A DNA stretch of 61,151 nucleotides from Nostocaceae cyanobacterium (GTDB lineage: Bacteria; Cyanobacteriota; Cyanobacteriia; Cyanobacteriales; Nostocaceae). The position numbers were made by a program, and so were the translations under genes. The notes beneath the pieces were generated by a model. The model did no database searches and was not told where the DNA came from. It was given only the letters and a program-made list of their open reading frames with translations. How positions within the stretch are numbered: position 1 is the stretch's first letter; the number at the start of each line of letters is the position of its first letter. This document shows positions 10,545 through 47,200 of the stretch, in pieces. The stretch covers positions 1 through 61,151 of the forward strand of contig DATGXB010000028.1 in NCBI GenBank assembly GCA_035299225.1. The letters run 5' to 3'.

Positions 10545-13500
10545 TTGTTATTGGGGAGTGCTAATACTACCATGAACGATTTTGAAACTGAGACAATAGA
10601 ACTGCGTAACGAGTTAGCCAAGAAATACTTTGATTTATCACCACTAGGACGAAGAATTGTTCAATTATTCTCGGTAATTTACGAACCTATTAACAGAAAT
10701 TCGCTCTCCAGTTGTATTGCTTACATTGGTGAGTTAGATGAAAATAATAAACCTTTTGTTAGCAGAACCTTAAGTTATCAGGTTGATAAATTATTGTCAA
10801 TAGGCGTTTTAATTCAAGAAGGCGGAAAAAGTCCTCAATGTCATCCTTTACTGGCTGAGATTGCTACCCGTGATGCAGTCAAAGCGGGAAGGTTTGAATT
10901 ATTAGTTAAAGCATTGGAAGAAAAGATCCCTGTTAGTTATAGTTCGGCAACTGGACAAAAATATTTTAACGGCGATCGCCAATTTTTACGGGAATTTCGG
11001 ATCGGATTTTACCGTCACGACCTAGATTTTATTAATAAGCAGATTGAAGATTATTATAAAGGAGGTCGCAAAGACGAAAAACTATCAGTTAATGAAATGT
11101 TTATACGGGTGTGCAATAACCCATTTGATCCCGATTGGTTTCGCACACTACCACAAGAATTATATGATAACTGTATAACTAACATTCTCTTAGAAGCTGC
11201 CTTAAAATGCAATCTGGCAGATGAAGCTTTTGCCATGCTGCAAGAGGATTGTGCTGATAGTACAATCCATTCATCAGATTATCTACAATTAGTTTTAACC
11301 GAACAACTACTGTTGAGGGGTTGTATACAAGAAGCAGAAGACAATTTAAAGAATATTACAGAAGAATATCAAAATAATGCCCTGGTTTATGCAGGCTGGA
11401 TTAACTTTTTCAAGGGGAATATTCAACAGGCGATCGCCTATTACAACTTAGCACTCAAAACCCTGAAAAAAGGTAAAGGCAAGCGTCAGCTATACTTCAA
11501 TACTATAGGGGGCTTATTCTTTATCCTCGCACTGATCAAAGAAGGTTCACCCAATAGCCTGCAAACAGCTTTAGATTATACCAGTTCAGCCGCACGTCAA
11601 ACAGGACATTGGCTAAAACCCATTTATGTACAATTAAGTGTTTTATTGCGGATTCAATTAGGAGACATCACCCAAAAAGAATTTGTTCTTGATAAAAATA
11701 TCATTTTCCCCCAAGTCCACAACAGCCTAGAAACATTATTTTTTGCCCTTTGTCATTACTGGGTAGATGTTGACAGTGCAAAAAGCAACCTACCCAAAGT
11801 ATTAAGCCCATTCTATCAAAAAGCTGTAACATCAGGTTATCACTGGTTAGCGATGGAAAGCGCCGAACTCCTTTCCCGACTGATCCCAGATAGCACTTAT
11901 GATACACAAGCAGAAATCCTCCGGGAAGATATTGGCGTAGATAGTATAGTTGATTTAATTCAACCCCAGGAAGCTTGGGAACAATGTTTAAACGCTTTAG
12001 CTAACATCCAAAAAGAACCACAAACATCTGTAAAAGCTGAATCAGAACTGCGTTTAGGTTGGTTTATTACCTATTATTTTGGTTCATGCACCATCCAACC
12101 ACGAGAACAAAAGATTAACGCTCAAGGTGTTTGGAGTAAAGGCCGAGTTATAGCCCTCAAGCGGCTGAGTGAAGACCTAGCAGAATTTAGTTATTTAACT
12201 CCTCAAGATATCCGGGTTTGTGCTTATATTGAAACTTATAGCACGTATAATTACAGAAGTTACAGCAAAAGCGAGTATAGATTTAACGAAAAAGCCATAT
12301 CTGCATTAATTGGACATCCTTTAGTATTTTGGGAAGATTCACCCAATACCCGTGTAGAAATTGTTAAGGGAGAACTAGAACTGCTGGTAAAAAAAGGCAA
12401 AAAAGACCGATTAATTCTAGAATTATCCCCTAAATTTGAACCAATACAAAATTTACTCACCATCAAAGAAACCCCCACCAGATTAAAAGTCATTGAAATC
12501 ACCGCCGAACATCATCGGATTGCAGAAATTATTGGTAAAAATAATCGCTTAGAAGTTCCCATTGGCGCAAAAGAGCGAGTTTTGGCCGCTATTAATGCCA
12601 TATCTGGGTTAGTAACAGTACATTCGGATATTGGTGGAGGGTTAGAAGGTGCAATAGAAGTACCGGCTGACAGTAAACCTCATGTTCATTTATTACCTGC
12701 TGGTGATGGTTTAAAAGTTGCTGTATTAGTTCGTCCCTTTGCTGATGGCGGAAATTATTACCGTCCCGGTACAGGTGGAGAAACAGTAATTGCCGAAATT
12801 GACGGTAAAAGATTGCACACCACACGGGATTTACAGGCAGAAAAACAACAAGCGAAAGCAGTCATAGCAGCTTGTCCGACCTTCACCCAAGGGGAAGAAC
12901 AGGACGGAGAATGGTTAATAGAAGCACCAGAAGACTGTTTAGAACTGTTGCTAGAACTGGAAGCACTAGGAGAGACTGTAGTGCTGGAATGGCCAGAAGG
13001 GGAACAACTGCGAGTTAGTCACCAAGCAGGTTTTAGTAACTTTAGGTTAAGTATTCAACGTCAAAAAGATTGGTTTGCAGCTAGTGGTGAGTTGCAATTA
13101 GATGATGATTTGGTGTTGGATATGCAGCGTTTAATGGAACTGCTAGAAAAAACCCCCAGCAGATTTATACCTTTGGGTTCTGGTCAGTTCTTGGCTTTAA
13201 CGCAAGAATTTCGCAAACGCTTGGATGAGTTGCGGACATTTTCGGAAAAACACGGTAAAGGTGTACGTTTTCACCCCTTAGCGGCTTTCGCTTTAGAAGA
13301 TATGGTCGCGGAAGTGGAAAACTTGCAAGCGGATAAACACTGGAAAGAGCATATTCAACGGCTGAAAGAAATGCAAAATTTACAGCCAAAATTACCTTCT
13401 ACACTGCAAGCAGAATTAAGAGATTATCAAATAGATGGTTTTAACTGGTTAGCAAGGTTGGCTTATTGGGGTGTTGGCGCTTGCTTGGCTGATGATATGG

Positions 13501-14801
13501 GATTGGGGAAAACTTTACAAGCTTTAGCGGTGATTCTCACCCGTGCATCGGAAGGTGCTAGTTTAATTATTGCACCGACTTCTGTCTGTATGAACTGGGT
13601 GAGTGAAGCACAGAAATTTGCACCTACTTTAAATGTAATTCAGTTTGGGGGATTTAGTGGCAATGAACGCCAAACCGTTTTAGATAATTTACAGCCATTT
13701 GATATGCTGGTTTGCAGCTATGGTTTATTACAACAGGAAGAAGTAGCGCAGAAGTTAGCGCAGGTACAATGGCAAACCATCGTTTTAGATGAAGCCCAAG
13801 CGATTAAAAATGTTGCCACCAAACGGTCACAAGCGGCCATGAACTTACAAGGAGGTTTTAAAGTCCTGACTACAGGTACACCCATAGAAAACCATTTGGG
13901 TGAACTGTGGAATTTATTCCGCTTTATCAACCCTGGTTTACTTGGTTCATTAGAAAGCTTTAATCAGCGTTTTGCTAACCCGATTGAAAGATATCAGGAT
14001 AAACAAGCCAGAAATAAACTCAAAAAATTGATTCAACCCTTCCTGTTACGTCGTACCAAAAACCAAGTTTTAGAAGAGTTACCTTCTCGCACGGAAATAG
14101 TTTTACACGTCGAGTTAAGTCAGGAAGAGATTGCTTTGTATGAAGCACTGCGTCGGGAAGCCATAGCAAAACTGACTGATAGCGACACCCCAGCCGGTCA
14201 AAAGCATCTACAAGTGTTAGCGGAAATTATGAGATTACGTCGCGCTTGCTGTAATGCACGGTTAGTAATGCCTGATACGAATCTGAAAAGTGCGAAATTA
14301 CAGCTTTTTGGGGAAGTGCTGACGGAATTATTAGAGAACCGTCATAAGGCTTTGGTGTTTAGTCAGTTTGTAGACCATTTACAAATTATCAAGGAATATT
14401 TAGATAAGCAAAAAATATCTTATCAATATTTAGATGGTAGCACCCCCGCAGGAGAACGCAAAAAACGAGTAGATGCTTTCCAATCTGGTATAGGTGATGT
14501 ATTTTTAATCAGCCTCAAAGCCGGGGGTACGGGGTTAAATCTCACGGCTGCTGATTACGTGATTCATCTAGACCCCTGGTGGAATCCCGCAGTTGAAGAC
14601 CAGGCATCAGACCGTGCCCACCGCATCGGCCAAAAACGCCCAGTAACTATTTATAGACTGGTAGCGAAAAATACTATTGAGGAAAAAATAGTGGAATTGC
14701 ATCAACACAAGCGAGATTTAGCTGATAATCTTCTAGAGGGTGCGGATATGAGTGGTAAGATATCCACAAATGAGTTATTACAATTAATTAATGAGGGTTA
14801 A
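10545..14801 (+). CDS. SNF2-family (SWI2/SNF2) helicase with large N-terminal region
   Basis: The C-terminal ~550 aa hold SNF2_N (LRDYQIDGFNWLARL, DDMGLGKTLQ, DEAQAIKN) and HELICc (FLISLKAGGTGLNLTAADYVIHLDPWWNP, QASDRAHRIGQ) motifs. The likely true start is the ATG at 10572, in frame. Confidence 0.85.
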   Translation: MLLGSANTTMNDFETETIELRNELAKKYFDLSPLGRRIVQLFSVIYEPINRNSLSSCIAYIGELDENNKPFVSRTLSYQVDKLLSIGVLIQEGGKSPQCHPLLAEIATRDAVKAGRFELLVKALEEKIPVSYSSATGQKYFNGDRQFLREFRIGFYRHDLDFINKQIEDYYKGGRKDEKLSVNEMFIRVCNNPFDPDWFRTLPQELYDNCITNILLEAALKCNLADEAFAMLQEDCADSTIHSSDYLQLVLTEQLLLRGCIQEAEDNLKNITEEYQNNALVYAGWINFFKGNIQQAIAYYNLALKTLKKGKGKRQLYFNTIGGLFFILALIKEGSPNSLQTALDYTSSAARQTGHWLKPIYVQLSVLLRIQLGDITQKEFVLDKNIIFPQVHNSLETLFFALCHYWVDVDSAKSNLPKVLSPFYQKAVTSGYHWLAMESAELLSRLIPDSTYDTQAEILREDIGVDSIVDLIQPQEAWEQCLNALANIQKEPQTSVKAESELRLGWFITYYFGSCTIQPREQKINAQGVWSKGRVIALKRLSEDLAEFSYLTPQDIRVCAYIETYSTYNYRSYSKSEYRFNEKAISALIGHPLVFWEDSPNTRVEIVKGELELLVKKGKKDRLILELSPKFEPIQNLLTIKETPTRLKVIEITAEHHRIAEIIGKNNRLEVPIGAKERVLAAINAISGLVTVHSDIGGGLEGAIEVPADSKPHVHLLPAGDGLKVAVLVRPFADGGNYYRPGTGGETVIAEIDGKRLHTTRDLQAEKQQAKAVIAACPTFTQGEEQDGEWLIEAPEDCLELLLELEALGETVVLEWPEGEQLRVSHQAGFSNFRLSIQRQKDWFAASGELQLDDDLVLDMQRLMELLEKTPSRFIPLGSGQFLALTQEFRKRLDELRTFSEKHGKGVRFHPLAAFALEDMVAEVENLQADKHWKEHIQRLKEMQNLQPKLPSTLQAELRDYQIDGFNWLARLAYWGVGACLADDMGLGKTLQALAVILTRASEGASLIIAPTSVCMNWVSEAQKFAPTLNVIQFGGFSGNERQTVLDNLQPFDMLVCSYGLLQQEEVAQKLAQVQWQTIVLDEAQAIKNVATKRSQAAMNLQGGFKVLTTGTPIENHLGELWNLFRFINPGLLGSLESFNQRFANPIERYQDKQARNKLKKLIQPFLLRRTKNQVLEELPSRTEIVLHVELSQEEIALYEALRREAIAKLTDSDTPAGQKHLQVLAEIMRLRRACCNARLVMPDTNLKSAKLQLFGEVLTELLENRHKALVFSQFVDHLQIIKEYLDKQKISYQYLDGSTPAGERKKRVDAFQSGIGDVFLISLKAGGTGLNLTAADYVIHLDPWWNPAVEDQASDRAHRIGQKRPVTIYRLVAKNTIEEKIVELHQHKRDLADNLLEGADMSGKISTNELLQLINEG

Positions 14802-14830
14802 CATTCTTAATTATCCTCATATTTTTTAGG

Positions 14831-14876
14831 GTGGGTATTGCTAAGAAAGTTGAAAATAGATACAAAATTATTTAAG
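14831..14876 (+). repeat. 46-bp direct repeat copy A flanking the VapBC cassette
   Basis: GTGGGTATTGCTAAGAAAGTTGAAAATAGATACAAAATTATTTAAG matches 15741-15786 (GTGGGAATTGCTGAAAAAGTTAGTAATAGCTACAAAATTATTTAAA) at 39/46 positions. Confidence 0.7.
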
Positions 14877-14923
14877 AGGATGTTTGTAAAGTCAAAAAGT
14901 TTACTGAAAAACCTCTCTCCAAA

Positions 14924-14946
14924 CCTCTCTCCTGCAAGGAGAGAGG
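14924..14946. terminator. perfect 9-bp GC-rich hairpin (CCTCTCTCC-TGCAA-GGAGAGAGG), candidate bidirectional terminator
   Basis: Stem-loop read directly. T-runs follow on the minus strand, fitting a terminator for vapBC. A second hairpin TTCCCT-CGT-AGGGAA lies at 14961-14976. It is preceded by the direct repeat AACCTCTCTCC x2. Confidence 0.4.
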
Positions 14947-15091
14947 CTTTAAAACACCCATTCCCTCGTAGGGAAGGGGGGCAAGGGGGGTTAGGTTTTT
15001 CGGGCTTATTTGTTTCATCAAATACTTTTAAAACATCCTCTAAAGCAATGCCCACCTTTACCCTAATTCTTAAATTAAATTTAATAGTTTT

Positions 15092-15487
15092 TTATATTGA
15101 AACGGTAAGCAAGCCAAGATATTTAACAAATGGCAAAAAGTCTTTATCAGTAAATAGAAGAGAGTTTTGGTTTTGAATACAAAAAGTTGCAATAATTACA
15201 TCAACCGTTTTGCGAATAGTGATACCACGTTTGCGGAGAAATCTATAGTTATCAGCACTTCTGAGAGCAGTATCTAAGCCTAACATTTCAAAAATTGTTA
15301 GAGAAGTTAGTAAATCTTTTGCTGTGTGATATTCCGTATCTGATCGAAATCCCTGCAAAACTTCAGTCAAAATTAGATCACCAATTGCTATTGGTTCTAC
15401 TCCCAAAAGTGTATCTAGCTTATTAGTTTCCGGGGTTTCTATGCCATTAAAATAATCTATCCAGACACTTGAATCTATAATAATCAT
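15092..15487 (-). CDS. vapC: PIN-domain ribonuclease toxin VapC
   Basis: 131 aa starting MIIIDSSVWIDY with a PIN acidic-residue pattern. It overlaps the upstream antitoxin ORF by one base (ATGA). Confidence 0.8.
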   Translation of the reverse strand: MIIIDSSVWIDYFNGIETPETNKLDTLLGVEPIAIGDLILTEVLQGFRSDTEYHTAKDLLTSLTIFEMLGLDTALRSADNYRFLRKRGITIRKTVDVIIATFCIQNQNSLLFTDKDFLPFVKYLGLLTVSI

Positions 15488-15678
15488 TAATCTGTTCTCA
15501 TTTCTTCAAGATTGCCTTCCCATTTAAGTTTTCCCCGATACGCTTTAATTTTTTCTTGTTGCTTAAGTTTAATCAATGTTTTAAGAGCAAGTTCTATGAC
15601 TTCCTGTTTAGTCTTAAGTCCAGTTGCTTTAATAGCATTTTCTATGAGGTTTTCATCAATGGAAATATTATTGATCAT
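15487..15678 (-). CDS. vapB: type II antitoxin (VapB-like) of the VapBC pair
   Basis: 63-aa charged protein immediately upstream of vapC and translationally coupled to it. Confidence 0.6.
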   Translation of the reverse strand: MINNISIDENLIENAIKATGLKTKQEVIELALKTLIKLKQQEKIKAYRGKLKWEGNLEEMRTD

Positions 15679-15740
15679 AACATATTTATATTTAGACCTT
15701 TTATCGTAAATTATATCTCAAATTAAATCAGTATGTTGCT

Positions 15741-15786
15741 GTGGGAATTGCTGAAAAAGTTAGTAATAGCTACAAAATTATTTAAA
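15741..15786 (+). repeat. 46-bp direct repeat copy B flanking the VapBC cassette
   Basis: See copy A. Confidence 0.7.
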
Positions 15787-15808
15787 ACACTATCCATATT
15801 AACCTGAT

Positions 15809-16063
15809 TTATTCTGAATGCTTGCCTAAATAGTCTGGTAGTTCATCTAAATTCTTTTGTGTGAGTTGGCATAAACGCTTCATTTGCAGAATTGTGAGGC
15901 TGATTTCTGTAATACCTCGTTCACAACGGCTGACGGTAGAAGGGTCAATACCGATGGCCACGGCAAACTCGGCTTGAGTCATACCAAGCTGTTCGCGTAT
16001 CGCTTTTAAGGGTACTACGACCTCATCCGAGTTTTGGGGTTGACGTTTGGTTCTTTTTATCAT
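15809..16063 (-). CDS. XRE-family helix-turn-helix transcriptional regulator
   Basis: 84 aa with an HTH_3 motif (LGMTQAEFAVAIGIDPSTVSRCERG). Confidence 0.75.
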   Translation of the reverse strand: MIKRTKRQPQNSDEVVVPLKAIREQLGMTQAEFAVAIGIDPSTVSRCERGITEISLTILQMKRLCQLTQKNLDELPDYLGKHSE

Positions 16064-16109
16064 ACATTTTAACTAGGCGATTTGCCTAGCTAATTTGCTA
16101 ATAATTAGG

Positions 16110-17285
16110 TTAGGTTTTGATGTTAATTGATACTCTAACTTGGAGTTTGTTTAAGGTTTTGACGCGATCGCTATCTTGGGAATTAAGGCGTATTTTTACC
16201 TTTACTACCCGCACATCTGCCTGAGCGGTGGGGTCATCATTGACTATTCCTGGTTTATCTATTTGTAAACCAATGTGATCTACTACTCCTTTAAGTTCTC
16301 CGTCAAATCCTCCATATTCACTAACGATAGTTGATTGTTGACCAAGTTTGACATATTTAATATCACTTTCATAAACTTCTGCTAAAACATACATTTGCTG
16401 AGTCTGGCCAATGTCCAAAATGCCATTATTTCCCACATATTCGCCGACTTTAGCATTTATATTTAGGATTTGCCCAGACACGGGAGAGAAAACATAAGCT
16501 GATTCTAAATCAATTTCGGCTTTTTTAAGTTGAGCTAAGGCTTCATTTAATTCTGCTTCCGCTACTAAAATATCAGTTGGTTTAACATTTTTGAGACTAT
16601 CTAAAGTTGCTTTACCTCCCTTAATTCGCTCTCTACTGGTGCTAATTTGTTGACTGAGATTTGCTTTTGCTTCTTGCAATTTTTTTGTTTCAATTTGTAC
16701 TTGTAAACGTCTGTCTTCGGTGTCAGCCGCCGAAACTGCCCCATCTTTTAACAGTTTTTGGTAACGTTGATAATCATTTATTGCTTTGTTTAATTCTACT
16801 TCTTGACGAGCAATAATAGTTTGTTGAATTTTGACACCTTCAGATAATTCTGCTTGCATTTCTGTCACTTTATTTTGTTGGGCTGCAATTTGTCCCGACT
16901 TTTCACCGGCTCGAACTTGCGCTAAACGCGATCGCGCAACCTGCACTTTAGCTGCGGAATTTTCCACTGTTGCTTGATCCCGTTTAAAGCTGTCCATGAC
17001 AGCAATAATTTGACCTTCCCTGACTTGATCACCTTCCTTAACACGCAGTTCAGCCAAACGCTGGTTAGATGCTGGCGCTCCAAGATGAATAATTTCTCCT
17101 TGGGGTTCTATCCGTCCCAAAGCGGTAACATAAGTGACTGTTTGCTTACTAATGGGGATTTCCTGTTTACTGTCCTGTTTAGTGCTGAAAAGTTGACGTG
17201 AGTTAAAAGCAACGGTAGCAATAATAGCGATAACACTTACAGATAGTAGTATAAGATTTGCTTTATCTAATTTAATCTTGTTCAT
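16110..17285 (-). CDS. HlyD/DevB-family membrane fusion protein of ABC exporter
   Basis: 391 aa. N-terminal TM helix, a long coiled-coil, and biotinyl/lipoyl-like hairpin segments typical of DevB/HlyD periplasmic adaptor proteins. Confidence 0.8.
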   Translation of the reverse strand: MNKIKLDKANLILLSVSVIAIIATVAFNSRQLFSTKQDSKQEIPISKQTVTYVTALGRIEPQGEIIHLGAPASNQRLAELRVKEGDQVREGQIIAVMDSFKRDQATVENSAAKVQVARSRLAQVRAGEKSGQIAAQQNKVTEMQAELSEGVKIQQTIIARQEVELNKAINDYQRYQKLLKDGAVSAADTEDRRLQVQIETKKLQEAKANLSQQISTSRERIKGGKATLDSLKNVKPTDILVAEAELNEALAQLKKAEIDLESAYVFSPVSGQILNINAKVGEYVGNNGILDIGQTQQMYVLAEVYESDIKYVKLGQQSTIVSEYGGFDGELKGVVDHIGLQIDKPGIVNDDPTAQADVRVVKVKIRLNSQDSDRVKTLNKLQVRVSINIKT

Positions 17286-17377
17286 TATATTGATTGCTTA
17301 AATTTTTTTAAGTGTATTTTCTGTTAAATTTAGAACTTACTCAAATTTGTTATATCCCAAAAAAAGAAAAAGTCATT

Positions 17378-17510
17378 AGGGAACAGGGAACAGGGAACAG
17401 GGAACAGGGAATAGGCAATAGGCAATAGGCAACAGGAAATAGAGAATTAATTCTTTTATTTTCCCCCCTGCCCCTCTGCCCCCTGCCCCTCTGCCCCTCT
17501 TCTCCCCTGC
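17378..17510. repeat. bipartite STR spacer: (GGGAACA)n(AGGCAAT)n ... (CCCCTGCC/CCTCTGCC)n
   Basis: Read directly. The C-rich array ends exactly at the stop codon of the upstream minus-strand ABC ATPase gene. Confidence 0.9.
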
Positions 17511-17511
17511 G

Positions 17512-18936
17512 TCATTTTGCAATCACACCGATCACACTACAAAAAGTTTCTCGGTCAAGTACCATCAAATCAGCATCAGCCTTTGCTCCAACTCGCACTG
17601 TAAAAGGATATTCTTCCCCATCAATTAACTGAGTATTACCAAAATAATCACCTGTTTTGATTTGATAGGATGTTGAATTATTGCCGTCACTTACTAATAC
17701 TTCTGCTGTTCCTGCTAATATCAAATAGAATTTATCGGCTAATGTACCTTGTTGAACTATTGTAGAATTAGCCCCATATCTAATTACCTTGGCTTGAGAT
17801 GCGATCGCCCTGATTTGGTATGTTTCAATATTAGGTAAGGCTTTGGACAGGTAACTACTGAACAAACGTTGATGTACACGACGCACAACATCAGAATTAG
17901 TTAAATCAGAACTACTGAGGAAATTTTGAAACATTTCTTCCTCAATTACCATCACTTTAACTTCGGAATCTTTGACCACACGTACTGTAGCCGTGCGTTT
18001 ACCACCTTGTAACAAACCTACCTCACCAAAATAATCCCCACGCTTGAGATGATTAATTAATCTGGGGGGTTGGTCAGCAGATTCTTGCATAATATTAACT
18101 TCACCTTCCAACAAAATATAGAATTTATTAGCTGGATCTCCTTGCTGAACGATGACTTCTTCTGATTGATAAGTTAAAACAGTGGGTTGATTAACGGTTT
18201 GCATGAGTGCAGATTCATTAAAACCAGGTAAAGCGAGGGAAAGTTCTTGATGTAAAGCTAAACCTAATTTGCCATCTTCAACATTAATAATGCGGTCTGC
18301 TAAATCAAGTATGCGATTATCATGTGTCACCATAAGAACGGCGCTATTTTGTTCTTTGGCTAGACGTTGCATTAAAGCTACTACATTACGTCCTGATGTT
18401 CTATCTAAAGCTGCTGTCGGCTCATCAGCAAGTACCAAACTGGGACAACTCACCAACGCACTAGCGATCGCTACCCGTTGTTTTTGTCCTCCAGAAAGAT
18501 TACTAGGATAAGCATTAATTTTTTCTCTTAATCCTATTGACTCCAAAATGGCTTCTATCTTACTACGAGCTTCTTTAGGGGAAAAGTTGGAATGTAATTC
18601 CAATGACATTTGAATATTCTGTTCAACCGTCAAAAAATCTAATAAACTACTTGATTGGGTAACATAGCCAAAGTTTCGACGCATTTGTACTAATTTTTCT
18701 TTAGTAGCTCCATTTAGTTCCTGTTCCAAAATTGTAATACTTCCTTCTTGGACAGAACGCAGACAACCAATTAAACTCAGTAATGTACTTTTTCCTGAAC
18801 CTGATGGACCAGTTAAAATTACAAATTCCTTAGCTTTAATTTCCAAATTAATATCAAATAAAATTTGCTTTCGGAGTTCATCTTCTCCAAAAAAGTAATT
18901 AAGGTTTTGGATAGAAACAATTGTTTGAGCAAACAC
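17512..18936 (-). CDS. DevA-like ABC transporter ATP-binding protein fused to two C-terminal cyclic-nucleotide-binding domains
   Basis: Residues 1-230 carry Walker A GPSGSGKST, signature LSGGQKQRVAIA and Walker B LVLADEPT. Residues ~250-360 form a cNMP-binding fold (GDYFGEVGLL...RTATVRVV). Residues ~370-470 form a second, more divergent cNMP-like domain (GDYFGNTQLIDGEEYPFTVRV). Confidence 0.85.
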   Translation of the reverse strand: MFAQTIVSIQNLNYFFGEDELRKQILFDINLEIKAKEFVILTGPSGSGKSTLLSLIGCLRSVQEGSITILEQELNGATKEKLVQMRRNFGYVTQSSSLLDFLTVEQNIQMSLELHSNFSPKEARSKIEAILESIGLREKINAYPSNLSGGQKQRVAIASALVSCPSLVLADEPTAALDRTSGRNVVALMQRLAKEQNSAVLMVTHDNRILDLADRIINVEDGKLGLALHQELSLALPGFNESALMQTVNQPTVLTYQSEEVIVQQGDPANKFYILLEGEVNIMQESADQPPRLINHLKRGDYFGEVGLLQGGKRTATVRVVKDSEVKVMVIEEEMFQNFLSSSDLTNSDVVRRVHQRLFSSYLSKALPNIETYQIRAIASQAKVIRYGANSTIVQQGTLADKFYLILAGTAEVLVSDGNNSTSYQIKTGDYFGNTQLIDGEEYPFTVRVGAKADADLMVLDRETFCSVIGVIAK

Positions 18937-18970: not shown

Positions 18971-19125
18971 TAGGAAATAGGGAACAGGGAACAGGCAATA
19001 GGCAATAGGCAATAGGCAATAGGCAATAGGCAATAGGCAATAGGCAATTAGGAATTTCTTATTTTCCCCCTTGCCCCTCTGCCCCCCTGCCCCTCTGCCC
19101 TTCTGCCTCCTGTCCCCTGCCTCCT
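18971..19125. repeat. bipartite STR spacer: (GGGAACA)2(AGGCAAT)9 ... C-rich (CCCCTCTGCC)n
   Basis: Read directly. The C-rich array abuts the stop codon of the devC-like gene. Confidence 0.9.
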
Positions 19126-20291
19126 TAAAATAGGTCTGCGGGATTGGCTTCTCTGAGTTTATTTACAGCAATAATGCCAGATGTAAAACACATAATAATT
19201 GTTAACAAAAATACGAATAATGCTCTGGTTAATGTCATATACATTGCCAGAGATGTGGCATTTTGGACAACAGCATATAATATTAAAGAAGCAAATAAAC
19301 CAGGAATATAACCTAATATTGCTAAAATCAAAGCTTCTTGAAATAAGATTTTGAGAAAATAACGATGTTTATAACCTCTGGCTTTGAGGACAGCATAATC
19401 TGGTAAATGGGTAGAAACTTCACTATAAAGAATTTGATAAACAATAATCACTCCTACCAAAAAGCCAACAAAAACTCCGGTACTAAAAACAAAGCCAATG
19501 GGAGCGCTAGTAGCCCAGTAATGTTTTTCATGTTCTATAAATTCGTTTAGTGTCATTACTTGAAGATTCCCATTAAGTTGAGCTTTAAGTTTTTTTATAA
19601 TTGCTGGAATATCAACACCTGGCTTAAGCTTTATTAGCCCAATTGTAATATTTTCTGCCGAACTACCTGACACCAAATAAGTAAAAGTGGTATTACTAAC
19701 AATCAGATTACCATCATCAGCAAAGGATGCTCCCGCCAAATCTACTAATTCTCTAATCAAAACTTGCTTATTACCCACTTCTACTTGAACTGATTTTCCT
19801 GATTTCAGGATATTTAACATATTGCCATATTCTTTTAAGTTAGATTTGCCATCTAGTAAAACAACTCCTTTTGTCTTTAACAGATGAGTGACTTGCTCAA
19901 AATTGGGAATTTCAAAAGGGTTATTGTCGGGGTTAATTCCCAGAATAATAATTCCTTTTCCTCCGCTAGAATTGCCATATTTAAAAGATAATTGTCCGTG
20001 ATGAATATAGTTTATAGAATCAACTTCACTGAAATTGAGAGTGCGATATAAATATTGTCGAGGAAAATTGACGGTGCTAACTAGGGTTTTCATTCGCGGG
20101 TGAATTAAAATCAAATCCGCTTTAAGACGTTGTTGTAATGCTGTTTGGCTCTCAAACAGAGAATCTAAAAAAGCTAATTGCGTAAAAATCAAAATTGCCG
20201 CAAAAGCAATACCAAAGAGTGCTACCACTAACCGTACTTTGTTACGTGTCAGTTGTAACCAGGCTAGAGGGACTTTTCCGAGAACATTCAT
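19125..20291 (-). CDS. DevC-like ABC exporter permease (FtsX/MacB-type)
   Basis: 388 aa. N-terminal TM helix, a large periplasmic domain, and a C-terminal FtsX-like 3-TM bundle. Its position immediately upstream of the DevA-like ATPase supports the call. Confidence 0.8.
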
Positions 20292-20325: not shown

Positions 20326-21675
20326 TTGTCATACCTTAACTTTACTCAGTTGGCAATGATGAAGAAAGTGCTGGCTAATAATATTTTTTTACGTAAGATT
20401 CTCAAGAATGCTAGTTGGCTGCTTGGTGGCCGAGTGATGACTGGATTAAGCAGTTTACTCTACCTAAGTTTAGTTACTCATAATCTTGGTGATACAGGAT
20501 TTGGGATGTTAGTTTTGATCCTAACTTATGTTCAAATCATTACAGATTTAACTACTTTCCAATCTTCTCAAGCACTAATTCGTTACGGTGCTATTTGTAT
20601 TGAACAGGAAAATAAATTAGCTTTACAACAGTTATTAAAGTTTACTACCATCCTTGATTTGTTAGGGGTAATAGCTGGTTTAGCGATCGCCGTTCTCATT
20701 GCTCCCTATATTGGTGTATATCTGGGATGGAATCAAGCCACAGTGAGTCAAGTGCGGTGGTATAGCTTGATTATTCTGTTTACTAGCACAGCCACCCCTA
20801 GAGGTTTATTGCAGTTGTGCGATCGCTTTGATTTACTAGCCCTACAAATTACCATTCCTACCTTAATACGAGTGTTTGGGGCGGTTTTTGCGAGTATTTT
20901 TCATGCTTCATTGTTGGTTTATTTATGGTTATGGTTTACTTCCGAAGCTTTGGGAGGATTGTTATTATTCTTTGTAGGTTGGCGAGTCGCTTGGCAACGG
21001 GAAATGCTAAAAAATATGAATTGGTCTTTCAAGAATTTAACCCAAAATCATCCCGATTTATTAAAGTTTTCCATCGTCTCTAATTTTGATTCTTCCCTAC
21101 CCATGATTATGAGACAAGCCAGCCCTTTAGTAGTAGGAATTTTTGCCACTCCCGCAGCAGCAGGACTATTTCAAGTTAGCTATGAATTATCTACCCCACT
21201 CAAAGATTTAGCGCAGATTTTGACTCAATCAGTTTATCCAGAATTAGCGCGGTTAGATAGTCAACAAAAATGGCGTTTATTTATCAATGTATTGATTAAA
21301 TCTACTTTTTTTGCCTTATTAATTGGGTTAGGAATATTGCTAATTAGTCTATTTTTTGGTAAAATAATTTTACAGTATGCCTTTGGTGAAGCGTTTATTT
21401 CTGCCCATCAAATTTTAGTATTATTGGTCATAGCAGAAGTTTTCACAATGGGAAATTGTGCTTTAGAACCAGCTTTTTATGCCATTGGTAAACCGAGTGT
21501 ACCCTTAAAAGTGAATGCTACAGCTATTTTGGGCGTTTATTTACCCTTACTGTTAATTTTAACTTCATCTTTTGGTGTAATCGGTACAGGAATAGCCACT
21601 TTATCATCTACCGCATTAATCTTTATTCTCAATTCTCTACTAATTTGGCCACAACTGCGTCGCGGGAGAAAGTAA
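20326..21675 (+). CDS. MOP-superfamily polysaccharide/lipid flippase (Wzx-like)
   Basis: 449 aa and highly hydrophobic, with about 12 predicted TM segments and a polysaccharide-biosynthesis-protein-like pattern. Divergent from the dev-like operon. Confidence 0.65.
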   Translation: MSYLNFTQLAMMKKVLANNIFLRKILKNASWLLGGRVMTGLSSLLYLSLVTHNLGDTGFGMLVLILTYVQIITDLTTFQSSQALIRYGAICIEQENKLALQQLLKFTTILDLLGVIAGLAIAVLIAPYIGVYLGWNQATVSQVRWYSLIILFTSTATPRGLLQLCDRFDLLALQITIPTLIRVFGAVFASIFHASLLVYLWLWFTSEALGGLLLFFVGWRVAWQREMLKNMNWSFKNLTQNHPDLLKFSIVSNFDSSLPMIMRQASPLVVGIFATPAAAGLFQVSYELSTPLKDLAQILTQSVYPELARLDSQQKWRLFINVLIKSTFFALLIGLGILLISLFFGKIILQYAFGEAFISAHQILVLLVIAEVFTMGNCALEPAFYAIGKPSVPLKVNATAILGVYLPLLLILTSSFGVIGTGIATLSSTALIFILNSLLIWPQLRRGRK

Positions 21676-21789: not shown

Positions 21790-22032
21790 GTGAAACTTAT
21801 GATTGTCCCAGAACTTGAACAACAACTTTTGCAACTTTCCCCCAACGATAAACTTTATATTATCCAACTACTAGCACAAAGCCTAACTATACAAAATAAA
21901 AATAATGAAATCCTCCCAAAAGAACCAAGTAAACTTTCAGAGTTTTTTCGTCAATCTCCACTAGTAGAAGTTGCTGAAGAATTAGACCTGAGCAGAGATA
22001 CAAGTTTACCTCGTGATACTTTTATCCCATGA
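21790..22032 (+). CDS. type II antitoxin (partner of the downstream PIN toxin)
   Basis: 80 aa. Overlaps the downstream PIN gene by 4 bp (ATGA). Confidence 0.5.
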   Translation: MKLMIVPELEQQLLQLSPNDKLYIIQLLAQSLTIQNKNNEILPKEPSKLSEFFRQSPLVEVAEELDLSRDTSLPRDTFIP

Positions 22033-22451
22033 CATACCTTCTTGATACCTGCTTAATTTCTGAAATTATCGCTAAACAACCAAATCAACAAGTTTTAGAT
22101 TGGCTAGATGCTCAACTTCCAGAAACACTTTATCTTAGTGTAATCACAGTTGGCGAAATTACTAAAGGTATAAGTAAACTTCCCACATCTAAACGCAAAG
22201 AATCTCTAACAAAATGGTTAAATGAAGCCCTACCCATTCGTTTTGAAAATAGAATCTTAGGTTTGGATACTTCAACAATGATATTATGGGGAAATCTAGT
22301 TGCACAATTAGAACAAAATGGGCGACCTTTACCAGTTATGGATTCTCTAATTGCAGCCATCGCTTTGCAAAACTCTCTCTCTCTTGTTACTAGAAATGAA
22401 AAAGATTTTGCTGGCACAGGAGTTGTAATCATTAATCCCTGGTATTCTTAA
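22029..22451 (+). CDS. vapC: PIN-domain toxin VapC
   Basis: 140 aa starting MTYLLDTCLISE with a PIN fold acidic pattern (D6, E43, D102...). Confidence 0.8.
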   Translation: MTYLLDTCLISEIIAKQPNQQVLDWLDAQLPETLYLSVITVGEITKGISKLPTSKRKESLTKWLNEALPIRFENRILGLDTSTMILWGNLVAQLEQNGRPLPVMDSLIAAIALQNSLSLVTRNEKDFAGTGVVIINPWYS

Positions 22452-23953: not shown

Positions 23954-24469
23954 TTACCACCAACGAATTTGTAAATATCCTGGTTGTTCTGTCGTTAGTT
24001 CTTCTTCTGTTTGCCAATCTGTGGGTTTATAGGTTTTAAAAACTCGATCCCAAATATCAACACCCATACCAAAATTATGATGCCATTGGTTATATTTGTG
24101 GTGGACATGGTGAACTGGCATTTTTAACCAAATACAAAGTTTGGGGTGATCGTGTTGGAGTTGATGAGCATAAGCAGAAAATACTGTATAACCTAAGCAA
24201 CCTATTAACCAACTAATTTTAATGTACCAGTTTGCATCAGCTAGTTGTAAAGCTAGAAATGTTAAAAAGATGAGAGGTAAACCACCAAGAAGATAGTCTC
24301 GAAATTCTGGGATTACTCCCTGTCCAGTTCCATCGAGGTGGTGATCAATGTGAAAGCGGCAGGTTTTGGGGAATATGTGCATCAAGCGATGTCCCCAGTA
24401 TTCAACTAGGCTGGTAATCAGCAACGCTGCGATAAAAGTAACTGTGATCTGTGCAATATTAATTAACAT
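23954..24469 (-). CDS. fatty-acid hydroxylase superfamily membrane protein (Sur2/sterol-desaturase-like)
   Basis: 171 aa and hydrophobic, with histidine boxes HRLMH, HHLDG, HQLQHDH and HHVHHKYNQWHH. Confidence 0.6.
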   Translation of the reverse strand: MLINIAQITVTFIAALLITSLVEYWGHRLMHIFPKTCRFHIDHHLDGTGQGVIPEFRDYLLGGLPLIFLTFLALQLADANWYIKISWLIGCLGYTVFSAYAHQLQHDHPKLCIWLKMPVHHVHHKYNQWHHNFGMGVDIWDRVFKTYKPTDWQTEEELTTEQPGYLQIRWW

Positions 24470-24544: not shown

Positions 24545-26350
24545 GTGTTATCTACTTCTTTTAAATCCCTAGTTGAACTTTTGAGCGATCGCGCTCACAC
24601 CCAACCCCATGAACAGGCTTTCACTTTCCTCAAAGATGGGGAAATCGAGTCTGGTAGCCTCACCTATCAAAATTTAGACCAACAAGCACGAGCGATCGCC
24701 TCTACACTCCAATCTATCACCTCCGCAGGCGATCGCATTTTATTACTTTATCCCTTCAATGCTTGTTTAGAATTTGTTGCGGCTTTATTTGGCTGCTTAT
24801 ATGCAGGTGTGATTGCTATCCCCACCAGACCACCCCAAAACGCCGAAGAATGGGCAGATTTTAGCTTTCGTGTCCAAGAATGCCAAACAGATATTGCTTT
24901 AACTTCTGCGGCCACGATAGATAAATTAAAGGATTCATGGTTAAACTTTGCCCCAGAAAGTAAAAACCTATCTTGGATTGCAACAGATACAATTGATTTA
25001 GCTCAAGCCACAAACTGGCAACAGCCAAAAATTGATAGCGAGACTATTGGCTATTTTCAATACACCTCTGGTTCAACCGGCATTCCTAAAGCAGTGGTAA
25101 TTACTCATGGTAACGTATTACAAAACTGCGCTAATTTCCAGGAAACTTTTCCTAATTTGAAATTTCGCGGTGTAAATTGGTTGCCTTTAACCCATGATAT
25201 GGGTTTGGTGGCTGGTGTGATGCAAACCGTTTATGCTGGGGCTTTTACCGCGTTCATGTCACCAATAGCGGTGTTTCAAAATCCCTCACGTTGGATTAAA
25301 GCCGTTTCCAACTACAAAGCCACCATTAGCGGTGGGCCGAATTTTATTTATGATATTTGTGTGCAAAGGGTCAACCCCGCAGAAATTGCCGACCTGGATT
25401 TAAGTAACTGGCAAATTGCCGGGAATGGTGCTGAACCAGTGCGACCGGAAACCCTAGAACGATTTACAGAAGTATTTTCACCCTATGGCTTTCGTCAAGA
25501 AGCGTTTTATTTATCCTATGGCATGGCTGAAGCCACTTTGGTAATTTCTGGGGGTGCAGTCAATGAAACCTCAACCGTGCGATTTTTAGATGAAAAAGCT
25601 TTAGAACAAAATCGCGTGGTGTTTGTAGCCAAAGGTCAAGCGGGATCACGGACGGTAATTAATTGCGGTTGTCCCTGGCCAGGAAATCGAGTGGTAATTG
25701 TTGACCCTCAAACTTTAACACCTTGTTCACCTGATGGTGTGGGGGAAATTTGGGTACAAGGTGCGGGACTGAGTAGCAGTTATTGGCATCGGCCAGAAGA
25801 AACAGAGAAAACCTTTCAGGGTTATTTAGCAGATAGTGGTGAGGGGTCGTTTTTAAGGACTGGGGATTTAGGTTTTCTGCATCATGGCCAACTGTTTATT
25901 ACAGGTCGTCTCAAAGACATCATGATTTTTTGGGGACGTAACTTTTATCCGCAAATTTTAGAACAAACATCAGAAAAGAGTCATCCCGCTTTATCTGCTA
26001 ATGGTAGTGCGGCTTTTTCTGTGGATGTAGAGGGAGAGGAAAGATTAGTAATTGTGCAAGAGGTAAATCGTCATGCACTCCGTAAGTTAAATCCTGAACA
26101 GGTAGCCGAGATGATTGGGGCTATTCGCCAGAGTATAATTATGCAGCATTTGGTAGAAGTTTATGCGATCGCACTAATCAAACCTAGCACCCTTCCCAAA
26201 ACCACAAGCGGAAAAGTCCAACGTCGTTACTGTCGAGATTTATTTTTAACCGGAAAATTAGCATTAGTTCAACAGTGGTATTGTCCCGATTCAGAACGAT
26301 TAGATCCTACTGATTTAACAGCTGCTTTACCTGATATTGAAGATGCTTAA
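24545..26350 (+). CDS. fatty acyl-AMP ligase (FAAL)
   Basis: GTG start. 601 aa. AMP-binding core YTSGSTGIPKAVVITHGN, a FAAL-type insertion, and a C-terminal subdomain. No fused ACP. Confidence 0.85.
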   Translation: MLSTSFKSLVELLSDRAHTQPHEQAFTFLKDGEIESGSLTYQNLDQQARAIASTLQSITSAGDRILLLYPFNACLEFVAALFGCLYAGVIAIPTRPPQNAEEWADFSFRVQECQTDIALTSAATIDKLKDSWLNFAPESKNLSWIATDTIDLAQATNWQQPKIDSETIGYFQYTSGSTGIPKAVVITHGNVLQNCANFQETFPNLKFRGVNWLPLTHDMGLVAGVMQTVYAGAFTAFMSPIAVFQNPSRWIKAVSNYKATISGGPNFIYDICVQRVNPAEIADLDLSNWQIAGNGAEPVRPETLERFTEVFSPYGFRQEAFYLSYGMAEATLVISGGAVNETSTVRFLDEKALEQNRVVFVAKGQAGSRTVINCGCPWPGNRVVIVDPQTLTPCSPDGVGEIWVQGAGLSSSYWHRPEETEKTFQGYLADSGEGSFLRTGDLGFLHHGQLFITGRLKDIMIFWGRNFYPQILEQTSEKSHPALSANGSAAFSVDVEGEERLVIVQEVNRHALRKLNPEQVAEMIGAIRQSIIMQHLVEVYAIALIKPSTLPKTTSGKVQRRYCRDLFLTGKLALVQQWYCPDSERLDPTDLTAALPDIEDA

Positions 26351-26401
26351 CCCATTTTCAGATTAATACAAATAGCCAAGGGTAAAAGGGAAACTTAATT
26401 G

Positions 26402-27676
26402 ATGTCTGATACCAAAACAAAAATTTTAATTGTTTATGAACGGTCAGGAATGGGTCATGAAATCATGGCTAATATCCTGACCGAGCAAATTTTCCAAGAC
26501 CCTAACATTGAAATTTACAAATATACCATTACAGAATTATTGCAAGACCCATTAAGTGAGCTTTTAACTAAAACTTGGGTGAGTGCTTGGAACTTGTTTA
26601 TACGTCATAATTTAATCTGGTTAGCGGATGGATTAATCAATTATCTCATGCGTTTAATTTTATTACCTATTGGTGAAGTTAGTTCAGTTGCAGCCATGCA
26701 CCAAACTTTAGATAAAATTGCGCCAGATATTCTAATATGTACCGCCGATACTGCGGGAAAATGTTTAGGGAGTTGGGCTAAAGAAAAACAAATTCCCTTT
26801 TTTTTAGTGATTACAGACCTATCTATTTTTATAGATTTAGTTTCTCCCGATGCTATTCATATTTGTTACTTTCCCGAAACCGTCAAAGCTATCCAAAATT
26901 TTCCTTTTAAACTCGCTTACTGGTCTGATAATTTAACCCGTTCTAGCAAACTATCTCAGCAAATTAGTTTTATTGCTAAATACCTTTATGATTTTATCCT
27001 ATGTTATCCACAAAATCGCATTTATCGCAATATTGACCAAGATTACCAACCTCAAAATCATGCTCGTTGTCAGGTAATCGGACCCCTACGCGAAGCAAAA
27101 CATTTTACAATTAGAGAACAAAAAACCCTCCGCAAAAAATTAGAATTATCCCTAACAAATCCTTGCATTTTAATTATTAGTGGTAGTTTTGGCGGTAACT
27201 TCTGCACAAAATACTTAAAATCTTTACAAGAATTTCCTCTCAATTCTCTAGTTATAATTGTAGCTTGTGGTCGAGATGAAAATTTGCGGTTAAAGATTGA
27301 AAGAATAGCAGCAGAACAGCAAAATCTTCATATAATATCACTTGGTTTTGTAGATAATCTCCATGAATGGATGTCGGCTGTAGATGTGATTTTGGCACGT
27401 CCCTCAGCAGGAATTTTATTAGAATCTCTACTTGCTCACACACCTTTATTACTTCCCCGACAAGCAGCAGCAAACGACAGAGGAACTATCAATTTTGTAG
27501 AAAAATATCAATTAGGTGAATGCTTTAAAAATCAGCAAGATTTAAAGATAAAATTAAAGCAATTAATCGAAGAAAAAGAACTTTATCAACAGCGAATTAA
27601 AGATTTACTTAAAAATTATCCTTCTACTTTTGATGAACAACGAGAAAAATTATGCAGTATATTCTTAAAAAGATAA
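26402..27676 (+). CDS. GT-B fold glycosyltransferase (GT28 / MGDG-synthase / UgtP-like)
   Basis: 425 aa. N-terminal ILIVYERSGMGHEIMA resembles the Glyco_tran_28_N / MGDG_synth motif. The C-terminal Rossmann-like half matches too. ATG at 26402 follows an in-frame TTG at 26399. Confidence 0.5.
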   Translation: MSDTKTKILIVYERSGMGHEIMANILTEQIFQDPNIEIYKYTITELLQDPLSELLTKTWVSAWNLFIRHNLIWLADGLINYLMRLILLPIGEVSSVAAMHQTLDKIAPDILICTADTAGKCLGSWAKEKQIPFFLVITDLSIFIDLVSPDAIHICYFPETVKAIQNFPFKLAYWSDNLTRSSKLSQQISFIAKYLYDFILCYPQNRIYRNIDQDYQPQNHARCQVIGPLREAKHFTIREQKTLRKKLELSLTNPCILIISGSFGGNFCTKYLKSLQEFPLNSLVIIVACGRDENLRLKIERIAAEQQNLHIISLGFVDNLHEWMSAVDVILARPSAGILLESLLAHTPLLLPRQAAANDRGTINFVEKYQLGECFKNQQDLKIKLKQLIEEKELYQQRIKDLLKNYPSTFDEQREKLCSIFLKR

Positions 27677-28370: not shown

Positions 28371-28536
28371 CATTCTTACTGCTTGTACCTCACCGGAAAA
28401 CGAGACTTTTTTAAAAATACCTAATTTTTAGGCGTGTGATCACTCTTAAAAGTTGGATTTTTCTGGACATATCGTTCCAGAAAATAGAAAGTATTTAGTT
28501 GAGATAAAATATCATCTTAAAAAATGGCAGGATAAC

Positions 28537-38720: not shown

Positions 38721-38835
38721 GTAATTAAGCAGAATTAATTACCCAAACTTTTTTCCTGTTGCCTATTGCCTGTTCCCTGTTCCCTGCACCGCACTGAGCG
38801 CAGTCGAAGTGTTCCCTGTTCCCTGCTGTAAGTCT
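38721..38835. repeat. hairpin leader, then AGGCAAT/CCCTGTT array carrying the identical 25-bp dispersed element (38787-38811)
   Basis: The 25-mer is 25/25 identical to 23239-23263 and inserted at the same ccctg^tt position. Confidence 0.85.
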
Positions 38836-42774: not shown

Positions 42775-42776
42775 TA

Positions 42777-42862
42777 GGCAATAGGAGGCAGGAGGCAGGA
42801 GGCAGGAGGCAGGAGGCATAAATAATTACTTCCTCATCTCCTCTTTCCCCCTGTTCCCTGTT
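42777..42862. repeat. STR block (AGGAGGC)5 ... CCCCCTGTTCCCTGTT
   Basis: Read directly. Lies between the CHRD and KDSR-like genes and creates the spurious N-terminal extension. Confidence 0.85.
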
Positions 42863-46979: not shown

Positions 46980-47200
46980 TATGACAGCTTCTTGAATAAT
47001 TGATATTACAAAACTTCATTCAATTTTTAGTTAAATATAGGCTATAGTTTACTGCTATAAACATTTTTTCGCCCGAATAGTGGTGAAATTCCTTAACTAA
47101 CAGGCTACCTCTGGTTACAATAGCATCCAAGTTCAAGCGGTTGATAATAAAATTTTTTGCCCCCTGCTGCCCTGCACTACCCTCCATTAATACTGCAAAT

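Follow-up and report, generated by a model that had tools for sequence, protein, structure and literature searches.

A stretch of 61,151 nucleotides of a Nostocaceae cyanobacterium (positions 1 to 61,151 of contig DATGXB010000028.1), referred to here as the window, carries on its minus strand a three-gene locus in which an ATP-binding cassette (ABC) ATPase of the DevA family is extended at its C-terminus by two cyclic nucleotide-binding (CNB) domains. In the direction of transcription the locus consists of (i) devC (19125..20291), encoding a MacB/FtsX-type permease of 388 amino acids (aa) that matches TIGR01185 with 372.7 bits (cut-off 290.35) as well as PF02687 (FtsX), (ii) devA-CNB-CNB (17512..18936), which starts with GTG and encodes the ATPase of 474 aa followed by a stop codon, and (iii) devB (16110..17285), encoding a periplasmic adaptor (membrane-fusion protein) of 391 aa that matches TIGR02971 with 321.4 bits (cut-off 129) and the Pfam families HlyD_D23, HlyD_3 and Biotin_lipoyl_2. 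The devA gene is separated by 188 bp from devC and by 226 bp from devB. Against TIGR02982, the model of the DevA family, the ATPase scores 332.9 bits (cut-off 295.8), with residues 6-224 corresponding to model positions 1-219 of 220. All three proteins lie above their NCBIfam cut-offs, in agreement with the original prediction, made from the nucleotide sequence, that a DevBCA-type tripartite exporter is encoded here, and by its sequence the locus is a type VII (MacB/DevCA-like) tripartite ABC exporter with DevC as permease, DevA as ATPase and DevB as adaptor.

The ATPase matches PF00005 (ABC_tran; 5e-32) and, in two stretches, PF00027 (cNMP_binding; 2e-35), which is the domain content that had been predicted, and a public protein collection holds an identical protein of 474 aa (P0001). 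The nucleotide-binding domain (NBD) occupies aa 1-225 (18262..18936, minus strand). Its motifs, read from the translation, comprise the Walker A motif GPSGSGKST (43-51), Q94, the signature LSGGQKQR (147-154), the Walker B motif LVLADE with D171 and E172, and H205, and these residues are invariant in the homolog alignment (A1). An AlphaFold2 (AF2) model of the ATPase built on 69 sequences has a mean pLDDT of 88.8 and a pTM of 0.79. In Foldseek comparisons over ~223 columns, the modelled NBD superimposes on the NBDs of MacB, YbbA and BceA with a root-mean-square deviation (rmsd) of 1.6-1.9 A and on LolD with 2.2-2.8 A; the identity to the entries of these four proteins is 33-40%. In total, the match of residues 6-224 to TIGR02982 and the complete set of motifs bear out the view that the first ~230 aa form a normal MacB/DevA-type NBD. 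The best matches to the whole chain in the PDB are the importer ATPases MetN and MalK, which superimpose on the NBD only (TMq ~0.45, rmsd 9-15 A), and none of the 50 PDB matches listed for the model combines an ABC NBD with a CNB domain in one chain.

The three genes also occur together in other genomes. Among the homologous loci compared here (designated by L-numbers), devC orthologs with 59-73% identity are located directly upstream of a CNB-fused ATPase in L081, L083, L084, L085 and L088, and devB orthologs with 62-70% identity adjoin the fused ATPase, on either strand, in L081, L083, L084 and L085. Among the open reading frames (ORFs) of the window that were scanned with Pfam, no outer membrane partner of the TolC/HgdD type was detected. 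HgdD of Anabaena is encoded away from devBCA (PMC8277102), and the outer membrane duct for the exporter in the window is presumably encoded elsewhere as well.

The tandem CNB domains

CNB1 (aa 236-345; 17902..18231) and CNB2 (aa 373-474; 17515..17820) are connected by a long interdomain helix (aa 346-372; 17821..17901), which DSSP assigns to residues 344-366 in the model of the full ATPase and to residues 119-141 in a separate model of the CNB tandem; all three elements are on the minus strand. Scanned separately, CNB1 and CNB2 score 77.8 and 49.8 bits against PF00027, i.e. each passes the gathering threshold of 27.5 bits alone, and both adopt a beta-barrel with accompanying helices in the AF2 models.

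The two domains differ in their phosphate-binding cassettes. In the CNB fold the cassette Glu contacts the ribose and the Arg contacts the phosphate of the cyclic nucleotide. The CNB1 cassette (F303-GEVGLLQGGKRTATV-318; nt 17983-18030, minus strand) is intact: its sequence, FGEVGLLQGGKRTATV, has the canonical FGE...RTA pattern and aligns with the cassettes of cGMP-dependent protein kinase (PKG) and of the regulatory subunit of cAMP-dependent protein kinase (PKA-R), and G304, E305 and R314 are invariant in 58 of 58 two-CNB homologs among the matches listed, a set that comprises the ATPase from the window and 57 further proteins. The R-T-A motif alone cannot decide between specificity for cAMP and for cGMP. 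In the degenerate CNB2 cassette (F432-GNTQLIDGEEYPFTV-447; nt 17596-17643, minus strand), which reads FGNTQLIDGEEYPFTV, Asn replaces Glu and Tyr-Pro-Phe replaces Arg-Thr-Ala, and the Arg is kept in only 17 of the same 58 homologs. The predicted combination of one clear and one degenerate CNB domain is therefore present, and of the cassette Arg and Glu to which the prediction had drawn attention, both are found in CNB1 and both are lost in CNB2.

The substitutions in CNB2 are themselves conserved as [Y/F/H]-P-[F/M/Y]-T in the clade of the window protein. Homologs with an identity of ~50% or less have, with few exceptions, a canonical second cassette, FGEIGL..R[TS]ATV. Because this more distant clade retains two canonical cassettes, the comparison indicates that the loss in CNB2 is secondary. 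Within the clade of the window protein, CNB2 is the fastest-evolving part of the protein (60-65% identity, compared to 73-75% for CNB1 and ~82% for the NBD), and despite this faster evolution it is a confidently folded domain.

In HMMER searches against the PDB the best matches of the CNB domains are PKG and PKA-R, with both domains aligning in a single stretch to PKA-R (query 28-245, 4din_B 156-361). For CNB2, the alignment with Plasmodium PKG covers the CNB-B/CNB-C span of that protein, which presumably carries a degenerate CNB domain as well. The separate AF2 model of the tandem (pLDDT 82, pTM 0.67) has PKA-R or PKG chains as all of its top 50 Foldseek matches, with E-values down to 5e-21 over ~250 columns. 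The global rmsd to all top PKA-R/PKG matches is 7.7-18 A with TM scores of 0.41-0.48, i.e. the domains match singly and their relative orientation differs, a mismatch that may in part reflect model uncertainty given the pTM of the tandem. Among the Foldseek matches is trypanosome PKA-R, which is cAMP-independent and binds nucleosides and which sets a precedent for a pocket put to a new use, as proposed here for CNB2.

Distribution, gene order and neighbourhood of the fused ATPase

The original prediction implied that the fusion is unusual. Its architecture is confirmed by the analyses above; in the databases, however, the fusion is common and comes with one to four CNB domains. In a search with the whole protein, PF00005 and PF00027 are both present in 119 of the 120 best protein clusters, which fall into three size classes: a class of ~490 aa with two CNB domains, found in Nostoc, Desmonostoc, Chlorogloeopsis, Pantanalinema, Trichocoleus, Jaaginema, Spirulina and others; a class of ~365 aa with one CNB domain, found also in Gammaproteobacteria and Ca. 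Electrothrix; and a class of 635-807 aa with three or four CNB domains. Heterocysts are not formed in Pantanalinema, Jaaginema, Spirulina and Trichocoleus. A scan of metagenomes with the NBD-CNB junction added ~59 fused ORFs with 30-44% identity, and the canonical FGE..R-x-A motif is present in 55 of 59. A search of a representative library with the junction-plus-CNB region mostly returned unrelated multi-CNB proteins and indicates the size of the family only roughly. Plasmids in the collection searched had only DevA and DevC paralogs, at 65-68% identity; on the conjugative plasmid pC052_C of Nostoc sp. C052, a devBCA-like operon in the order B-C-A with an ATPase of 440 aa is situated inside a nonribosomal peptide synthetase/polyketide synthase (PKS) cluster (L173:8319-12119).

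Fused proteins are named 'cyclic nucleotide-binding domain-containing protein' by NCBI, and one record reads 'DevA-like, part of ABC transporter'. In the literature searched we found no paper characterising a DevA-CNB fusion, and neither the PDB nor that literature yielded a structure or biochemistry of one. The DevA-CNB fusion is thus recorded in databases and unstudied, and the gene in the window is an ordinary member of the two-CNB subfamily. The one-CNB ATPases of MacB-type operons share with it the NBD-CNB junction, a canonical cassette and the DevB-like and DevC-like operon genes; they differ in having a single CNB domain, in their identity of 30-55% and in being encoded mostly in B-C-A or B-C-C-A order or with a divergent devB. 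In Mycobacterium tuberculosis, Rv2564 has been listed with PF00027 (PMC4886424), and Rv2563/Rv2564 and Rv0072/Rv0073 have been described as MacB-like, functionally uncharacterised systems in which the NBD has a regulatory domain (PMC7761784). Compared by description only, these systems resemble the one studied here in combining a type VII-like permease with such an NBD, and differ in being actinobacterial and in that no DevB-type adaptor has been reported.

Gene order separates the subfamily from plain DevA loci. The scan of the genome collection with the whole protein, which used exact peptide patterns, matched only plain DevA paralogs consisting of the NBD, and these 80 genomic loci then provided the controls for comparing gene order and the frequency of cyclase genes. 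All 66 plain loci in which the three genes are visible have the order B-C-A and none has C-A-B. The one-CNB form is mostly arranged as B-C-A or B-C-C-A, in some cases with a divergent devB. Members with two or four CNB domains are never arranged as B-C-A in the loci examined: the order is C-A-B on one strand in the window and in L084, L087, L092 and L093, C-A with devB inverted in L081, L083 and L085, A-B in L086 and L091, and C-B-A in L090. The order permease-ATPase-adaptor, correctly anticipated for the window, is one form of a non-canonical order that is a trait of the subfamily and in which the position of devB is unstable.

In five loci (L087, L091, L099, L103 and L143), genes for class III cyclases (PF00211) are found no farther than 8 kb from the fused ATPase, i.e. 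in 5 of 72 fused loci (710 kb) compared to 1 of 81 control loci (911 kb), and we regard this proximity as weakly suggestive of a link to cyclic nucleoside monophosphates (cNMP). In Spirulina sp. SIO3F2 (L087:4606-8461), a CHASE2-class III cyclase gene is positioned just upstream of devC-devA(CNB)-devB, and devC is adjoined by a gene for a FeeM-like N-acyl amino acid synthase of 305 aa that is fused to a CNB domain of its own, which suggests that synthesis and export may both be under cNMP control at this locus. L091 contains two cyclase genes, and on a metagenome contig (L099:3492-8546) a cyclase-AAA_16-TPR ORF (1287-aa frame) ends 4 bp before the frame of a one-CNB ATPase.

The pump also has a lipid-gene neighbourhood, with genes assigned using Pfam and NCBIfam. 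As predicted, a MOP flippase gene is transcribed divergently from devC; it encodes a Polysacc_synt (Wzx/MOP-type) protein (20326..21675, plus strand; PF01943, 65.9 bits) and its orthologs in Nostoc minutum, Chlorogloeopsis and Pantanalinema (L081, L083 and L084), with 57-75% identity, share this position and divergent orientation. The gene beside devC is for such a Wzx-like flippase in these three loci and in the window and for an MsbA-like ABC protein in L088 and L092. Farther from the pump are genes for an FA_hydroxylase (23954-24469, minus strand; ortholog with 78% identity), a fatty acyl-AMP ligase (FAAL; 24545-26350, plus strand; orthologs with 76-83% identity) and a GT28-like glycosyltransferase (26399-27676, plus strand; orthologs with 70-84% identity), and orthologs of these genes adjoin the pump in L081, L083 and L084. 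These are followed by genes for a second glycosyltransferase (MGDG-synthase/GT28-like; 38836-39999, minus strand), which has a 68% identical ortholog four genes downstream of devB in L084, for a short-chain dehydrogenase/reductase (SDR; 41947-42819, minus strand; ortholog with 67% identity), and for a tridomain protein in which a FAAL, an acyl carrier protein (ACP) and an oxoamine synthase are fused (43734-46979, minus strand; ortholog with 64% identity). Between the latter two is a CHRD-domain ORF (42867-43565, minus strand), for which the homologous loci yielded no ortholog. Finally, a type I PKS of 2814 aa with the domains KS-AT-DH-cMT-ER-KR-ACP-TE (47141-55585, plus strand) has a 71% identical ortholog that abuts devB in L081.

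In Nostoc, Chlorogloeopsis, Pantanalinema and Jaaginema, the genes around the pump include orthologs of the lipid genes in the window. In L084 the tridomain gene and the SDR gene (64% and 67% identity) directly follow devB, and in L092 the pump is flanked by these two genes as well. In Jaaginema, the pump has genes for an SDR, a FAAL-ACP-oxoamine synthase, a FAAL, an inositol-1-phosphate synthase and an MsbA-like ABC protein on one side, and for a phosphoenolpyruvate mutase, a phosphonopyruvate-decarboxylase-like protein, an aminotransferase and a nucleotidyltransferase on the other. A four-CNB member is encoded near genes for an inositol-1-phosphate synthase, an MsbA-like ABC protein and a CDP-alcohol phosphatidyltransferase. 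The oxoamine synthase domain matches the BioF, Kbl and serine palmitoyltransferase (SPT) models, each below the equivalog cut-off. Across genera, the gene set resembles a pathway for a sphingoid-base/ceramide-like lipid (L084:9866-15172, L092:1-8623 and 12770-17382, L088:1-2523), with head-group genes that vary by genome, i.e. glycosyl, inositol-phosphate or 2-aminoethylphosphonate.

Proposed ligand sensing and cargo

Combining the domain architecture and the ATPase motifs with the intact CNB1 and degenerate CNB2 cassettes, the gene order and the lipid-gene neighbourhood, we favor, with some reservation, a model in which the locus encodes a DevCAB-type lipid exporter with an ATPase that is regulated via its C-terminal CNB tandem, in which CNB1 binds cAMP or cGMP and in which the lipid cargo is the product of the co-conserved genes. 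Judged by sequence, gating of the pump by cNMP is plausible. In this model, CNB1 would bind cAMP or cGMP, CNB2 would not bind cyclic nucleotides in the canonical manner and could act as a relay, as a dimerisation module or as a site for another ligand, and binding of the ligand would move the C-terminal module with respect to the NBD, which in turn would alter NBD dimerisation and ATP turnover. C-terminal regulatory domains of importer ATPases control NBD closure. The regulatory logic would be that of the C-terminal domains of MetN (C2), MalK and ModC, in which a ligand-binding module likewise follows the NBD, and the outcome could be either activation or inhibition. The analogy is functional only: those proteins are importers, their regulatory fold is another one and their ligands are the transport substrates.

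With respect to the cargo, the lipid made by the FAAL-ACP-oxoamine synthase, ketoreductase, hydroxylase, glycosyltransferases and PKS would be flipped across the inner membrane by the Wzx-like or MsbA-like neighbour, and DevCAB would extract it from the periplasmic side. MacB-type pumps take their substrates from this side. The closest known exporters are DevBCA-HgdD of Anabaena sp. PCC 7120 and its paralogs, which have the same three protein families and the MacB-type NBD fold, and the pump in the window is probably a lipid exporter that, as DevBCA-HgdD, works with a TolC-like duct encoded elsewhere. It differs from them in the tandem CNB extension of ~250 aa, in the C-A-B order and in its neighbourhood, and the accessible literature makes no mention of a CNB domain on the DevBCA paralogs of PCC 7120.

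Several observations weigh against regulation by cAMP or cGMP and against the proposed cargo. First, cyclase genes are only weakly enriched near the fused ATPases (Fisher p = 0.08, per-base binomial p = 0.03-0.06), a search for cyclase domains detected none in the 61-kb window, and none was found at distances of up to 10 kb from the closest orthologs (L081 and L083-L086). Second, the interdomain geometry of the tandem-CNB model is unlike that of every solved PKA/PKG state. The tandem shares with CNB-A/CNB-B of PKA-R and PKG the alignment as a single unit and the motif FGE..RTA in the first phosphate-binding cassette; however, it is fused to an ABC ATPase and its orientation differs (rmsd 8-18 A, TM ~0.42-0.48). 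Because of this difference, a PKA-like switch cannot be assumed. Third, the lipid genes in the window are spread over 40 kb with unrelated genes interspersed, and the assignment of the cargo therefore rests on synteny in other genomes. Fourth, the CNB-containing N-terminal domain of HetC from Nostoc PCC 7120 bound ppGpp (Kd ~59 uM) and GTP, and not cAMP (PMC10986499).

HetC is similar to the ATPase in the window in being part of a cyanobacterial ABC exporter and in having a PF00027 domain on which its function depends (PMC10986499), and dissimilar in that its CNB domain is N-terminal and that it is a PCAT-type, i.e. type I-secretion-type, full-length transporter with a C39 peptidase and belongs to a different ABC family. 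Because its CNB domain bound ppGpp and not cAMP, appreciable weight has to be given to the alternative that the CNB domains sense another ligand, either ppGpp/GTP or a nucleoside, and couple the pump to the nutritional state instead of to cAMP/cGMP. The presence of nucleoside-binding trypanosome PKA-R chains among the structural matches fits this alternative, as does CNB2, in which the Glu and Arg are missing, yet the replacement motif YPFT is conserved. In CNB1, however, all residues contacting the ribose and the cyclic phosphate are retained and invariant over the 58 homologs, the best sequence matches are cNMP-dependent kinases, and cyclase genes adjoin several members of the family. We consider this alternative clearly less likely than binding of cAMP or cGMP by CNB1.

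Alternatively, the tandem could be a ligand-independent structural appendage for dimerisation or docking, with the pump being regulated by transcription alone. The degeneration of CNB2 in the clade of the window protein and its faster evolution compared to CNB1 and the NBD would be in line with this, as would the variation from one to four CNB domains across the family and the lack of a cyclase gene near the closest orthologs; the strict conservation of the CNB1 Glu and Arg in distant homologs, however, is hard to explain without ligand binding and makes an appendage of this kind improbable. A role of the pump in heterocyst envelope formation, as a paralog of the DevBCA that exports heterocyst glycolipids, is the context implied by the original prediction and is highly unlikely: all three proteins pass the NCBIfam models that take their names from heterocyst DevB, DevC and DevA, the window has Nostocales-like relatives and in Anabaena PCC 7120 several DevBCA paralogs have an effect on diazotrophic growth (PMC8277102, PMC6161253), but orthologs of the same architecture are found in Pantanalinema, Jaaginema, Spirulina and Trichocoleus, the gene order is unlike the B-C-A of all 66 plain loci, and the conserved neighbours are FAAL, oxoamine synthase, PKS and flippase genes.

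Returning to a cNMP-regulated lipid exporter, the chemical nature of its cargo can be narrowed down tentatively. In Caulobacter, sphingolipid synthesis starts with an acyl-ACP synthetase, a dedicated ACP and SPT (PMC9386255), and the tridomain protein combines the same three activities in one polypeptide. Synteny leads us to infer an amino-alcohol (sphingoid-like) lipid as the cargo, with head groups that differ between lineages; the literature searched contained no paper on a cyanobacterial FAAL-ACP-oxoamine synthase pathway. A more specific and more doubtful proposal is that the pump is a dedicated second-messenger-gated exporter of a sphingolipid-like lipid, with cAMP/cGMP setting its rate. 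Under this proposal the FAAL-ACP-oxoamine synthase would start synthesis, the SDR encoded next to it would yield a sphingoid-type base by reduction of the keto group, the hydroxylase, the glycosyltransferase and the genes for inositol-phosphate or aminoethylphosphonate head groups would serve to decorate this base, and DevCAB would deliver the lipid to the outer membrane or to the outside. If correct, it would add a sphingolipid-type pathway in cyanobacteria together with a candidate outer membrane route for such lipids, and the pump would be the first demonstrated case of an ABC exporter under direct gating by a cyclic nucleotide. We know of no established route for the transport of bacterial sphingolipids to the outer membrane.

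ABC exporters are usually controlled by transcription or by substrate. A cyclic nucleotide sensor fused to the motor would constitute a post-translational switch that connects cAMP/cGMP signalling to the export of envelope lipids. Since the fusion is widespread in cyanobacteria, environmental bacteria and apparently in M. tuberculosis, a single characterised member would explain a large set of genes. Moreover, the conserved link to FAAL-oxoamine synthase, PKS and flippase genes suggests that cyanobacteria make a lipid that has yet to be described and offers a starting point in the search for it.

Spacer repeats and flanking genes

Both spacers of the locus contain a copy of a composite repeat element. 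Copy 1 (18980..19124, minus strand) begins directly after the devC stop codon and copy 2 (17383..17510, minus strand) directly after the devA stop codon. According to the tandem arrays detected by TRF, the element consists of ~5 G-rich octamers (GGGGCAGA), followed by GGGGGAAAATAA and by 10-12 heptamers (CCTATTG or CCTGTTC), with ~12 copies of CCTATTG forming the heptamer arm of copy 1. With 76% identity between them, the two spacers are copies of one element. The heptamer spacers of 130-190 bp described in the original prediction are therefore real with regard to the heptamer arrays; the spacers are, however, 188 and 226 bp long and each has an array of G-rich octamers in addition. Within the window the octamer pattern is confined to the two spacers, and the heptamer pattern recurs in one weak match at 38755.

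Each copy is predicted to fold into one long imperfect hairpin (copy 1, -71.5 kcal/mol, z = -2.57; copy 2, -63.5 kcal/mol, z = -2.88). No Rfam family corresponds to the element, the only matches being sub-threshold ones to plant miRNA hairpins. A role of the hairpins as intrinsic terminators or promoters was rejected, given that promoter and terminator sites are no commoner than in shuffled sequence; moreover, the U-run of the second hairpin begins ~12 nt past the stem, unlike in a canonical terminator. No NtcA-type GTAN8TAC site was recognised by eye in the intergenic region between devC and the flippase gene. In other Nostocales the spacers are occupied by short tandem repeats of different sequence, and in Pantanalinema (L084), on the L088 contig and in a one-CNB Nostoc locus (L089) the spacers are short and plain. 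The repeat spacers are not conserved in other genera, which rules them out as a conserved part of the system; we regard them as lineage-specific insertions resembling short tandemly repeated repetitive sequences, which may affect mRNA stability.

A gene for an XRE-family helix-turn-helix protein (15809..16063, minus strand; PF01381, 51.8 bits) is present 46 bp downstream of devB, where the original prediction had placed a regulator. It is not conserved: none of 13 related loci (L081-L093) has a homolog, and the gene adjoins a VapBC module, two observations that make a role as a dedicated regulator improbable. The gene is probably unrelated to the exporter system. Toxin-antitoxin-like pairs are found on both sides of the pump cluster, with VapB and a PIN-domain VapC at 15092-15678 and a small ORF together with a putative PIN-like toxin at 21790-22451, and in Chlorogloeopsis a PIN pair is inserted between devA and devB (L083:8495-9171).

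Among the other genes of the window, an ORF of 696 aa (28453-30543, plus strand), located between the FAAL/glycosyltransferase genes and a DJ-1/EthD/CMD group, has no match in Pfam or NCBIfam. The window also encodes a Ser/Thr kinase-WD40 fusion (6279-8009, plus strand), an SNF2-family helicase of 1418 aa with a long N-terminal extension (10545-14801, plus strand) and a NACHT STAND NTPase (57997-60030, minus strand).

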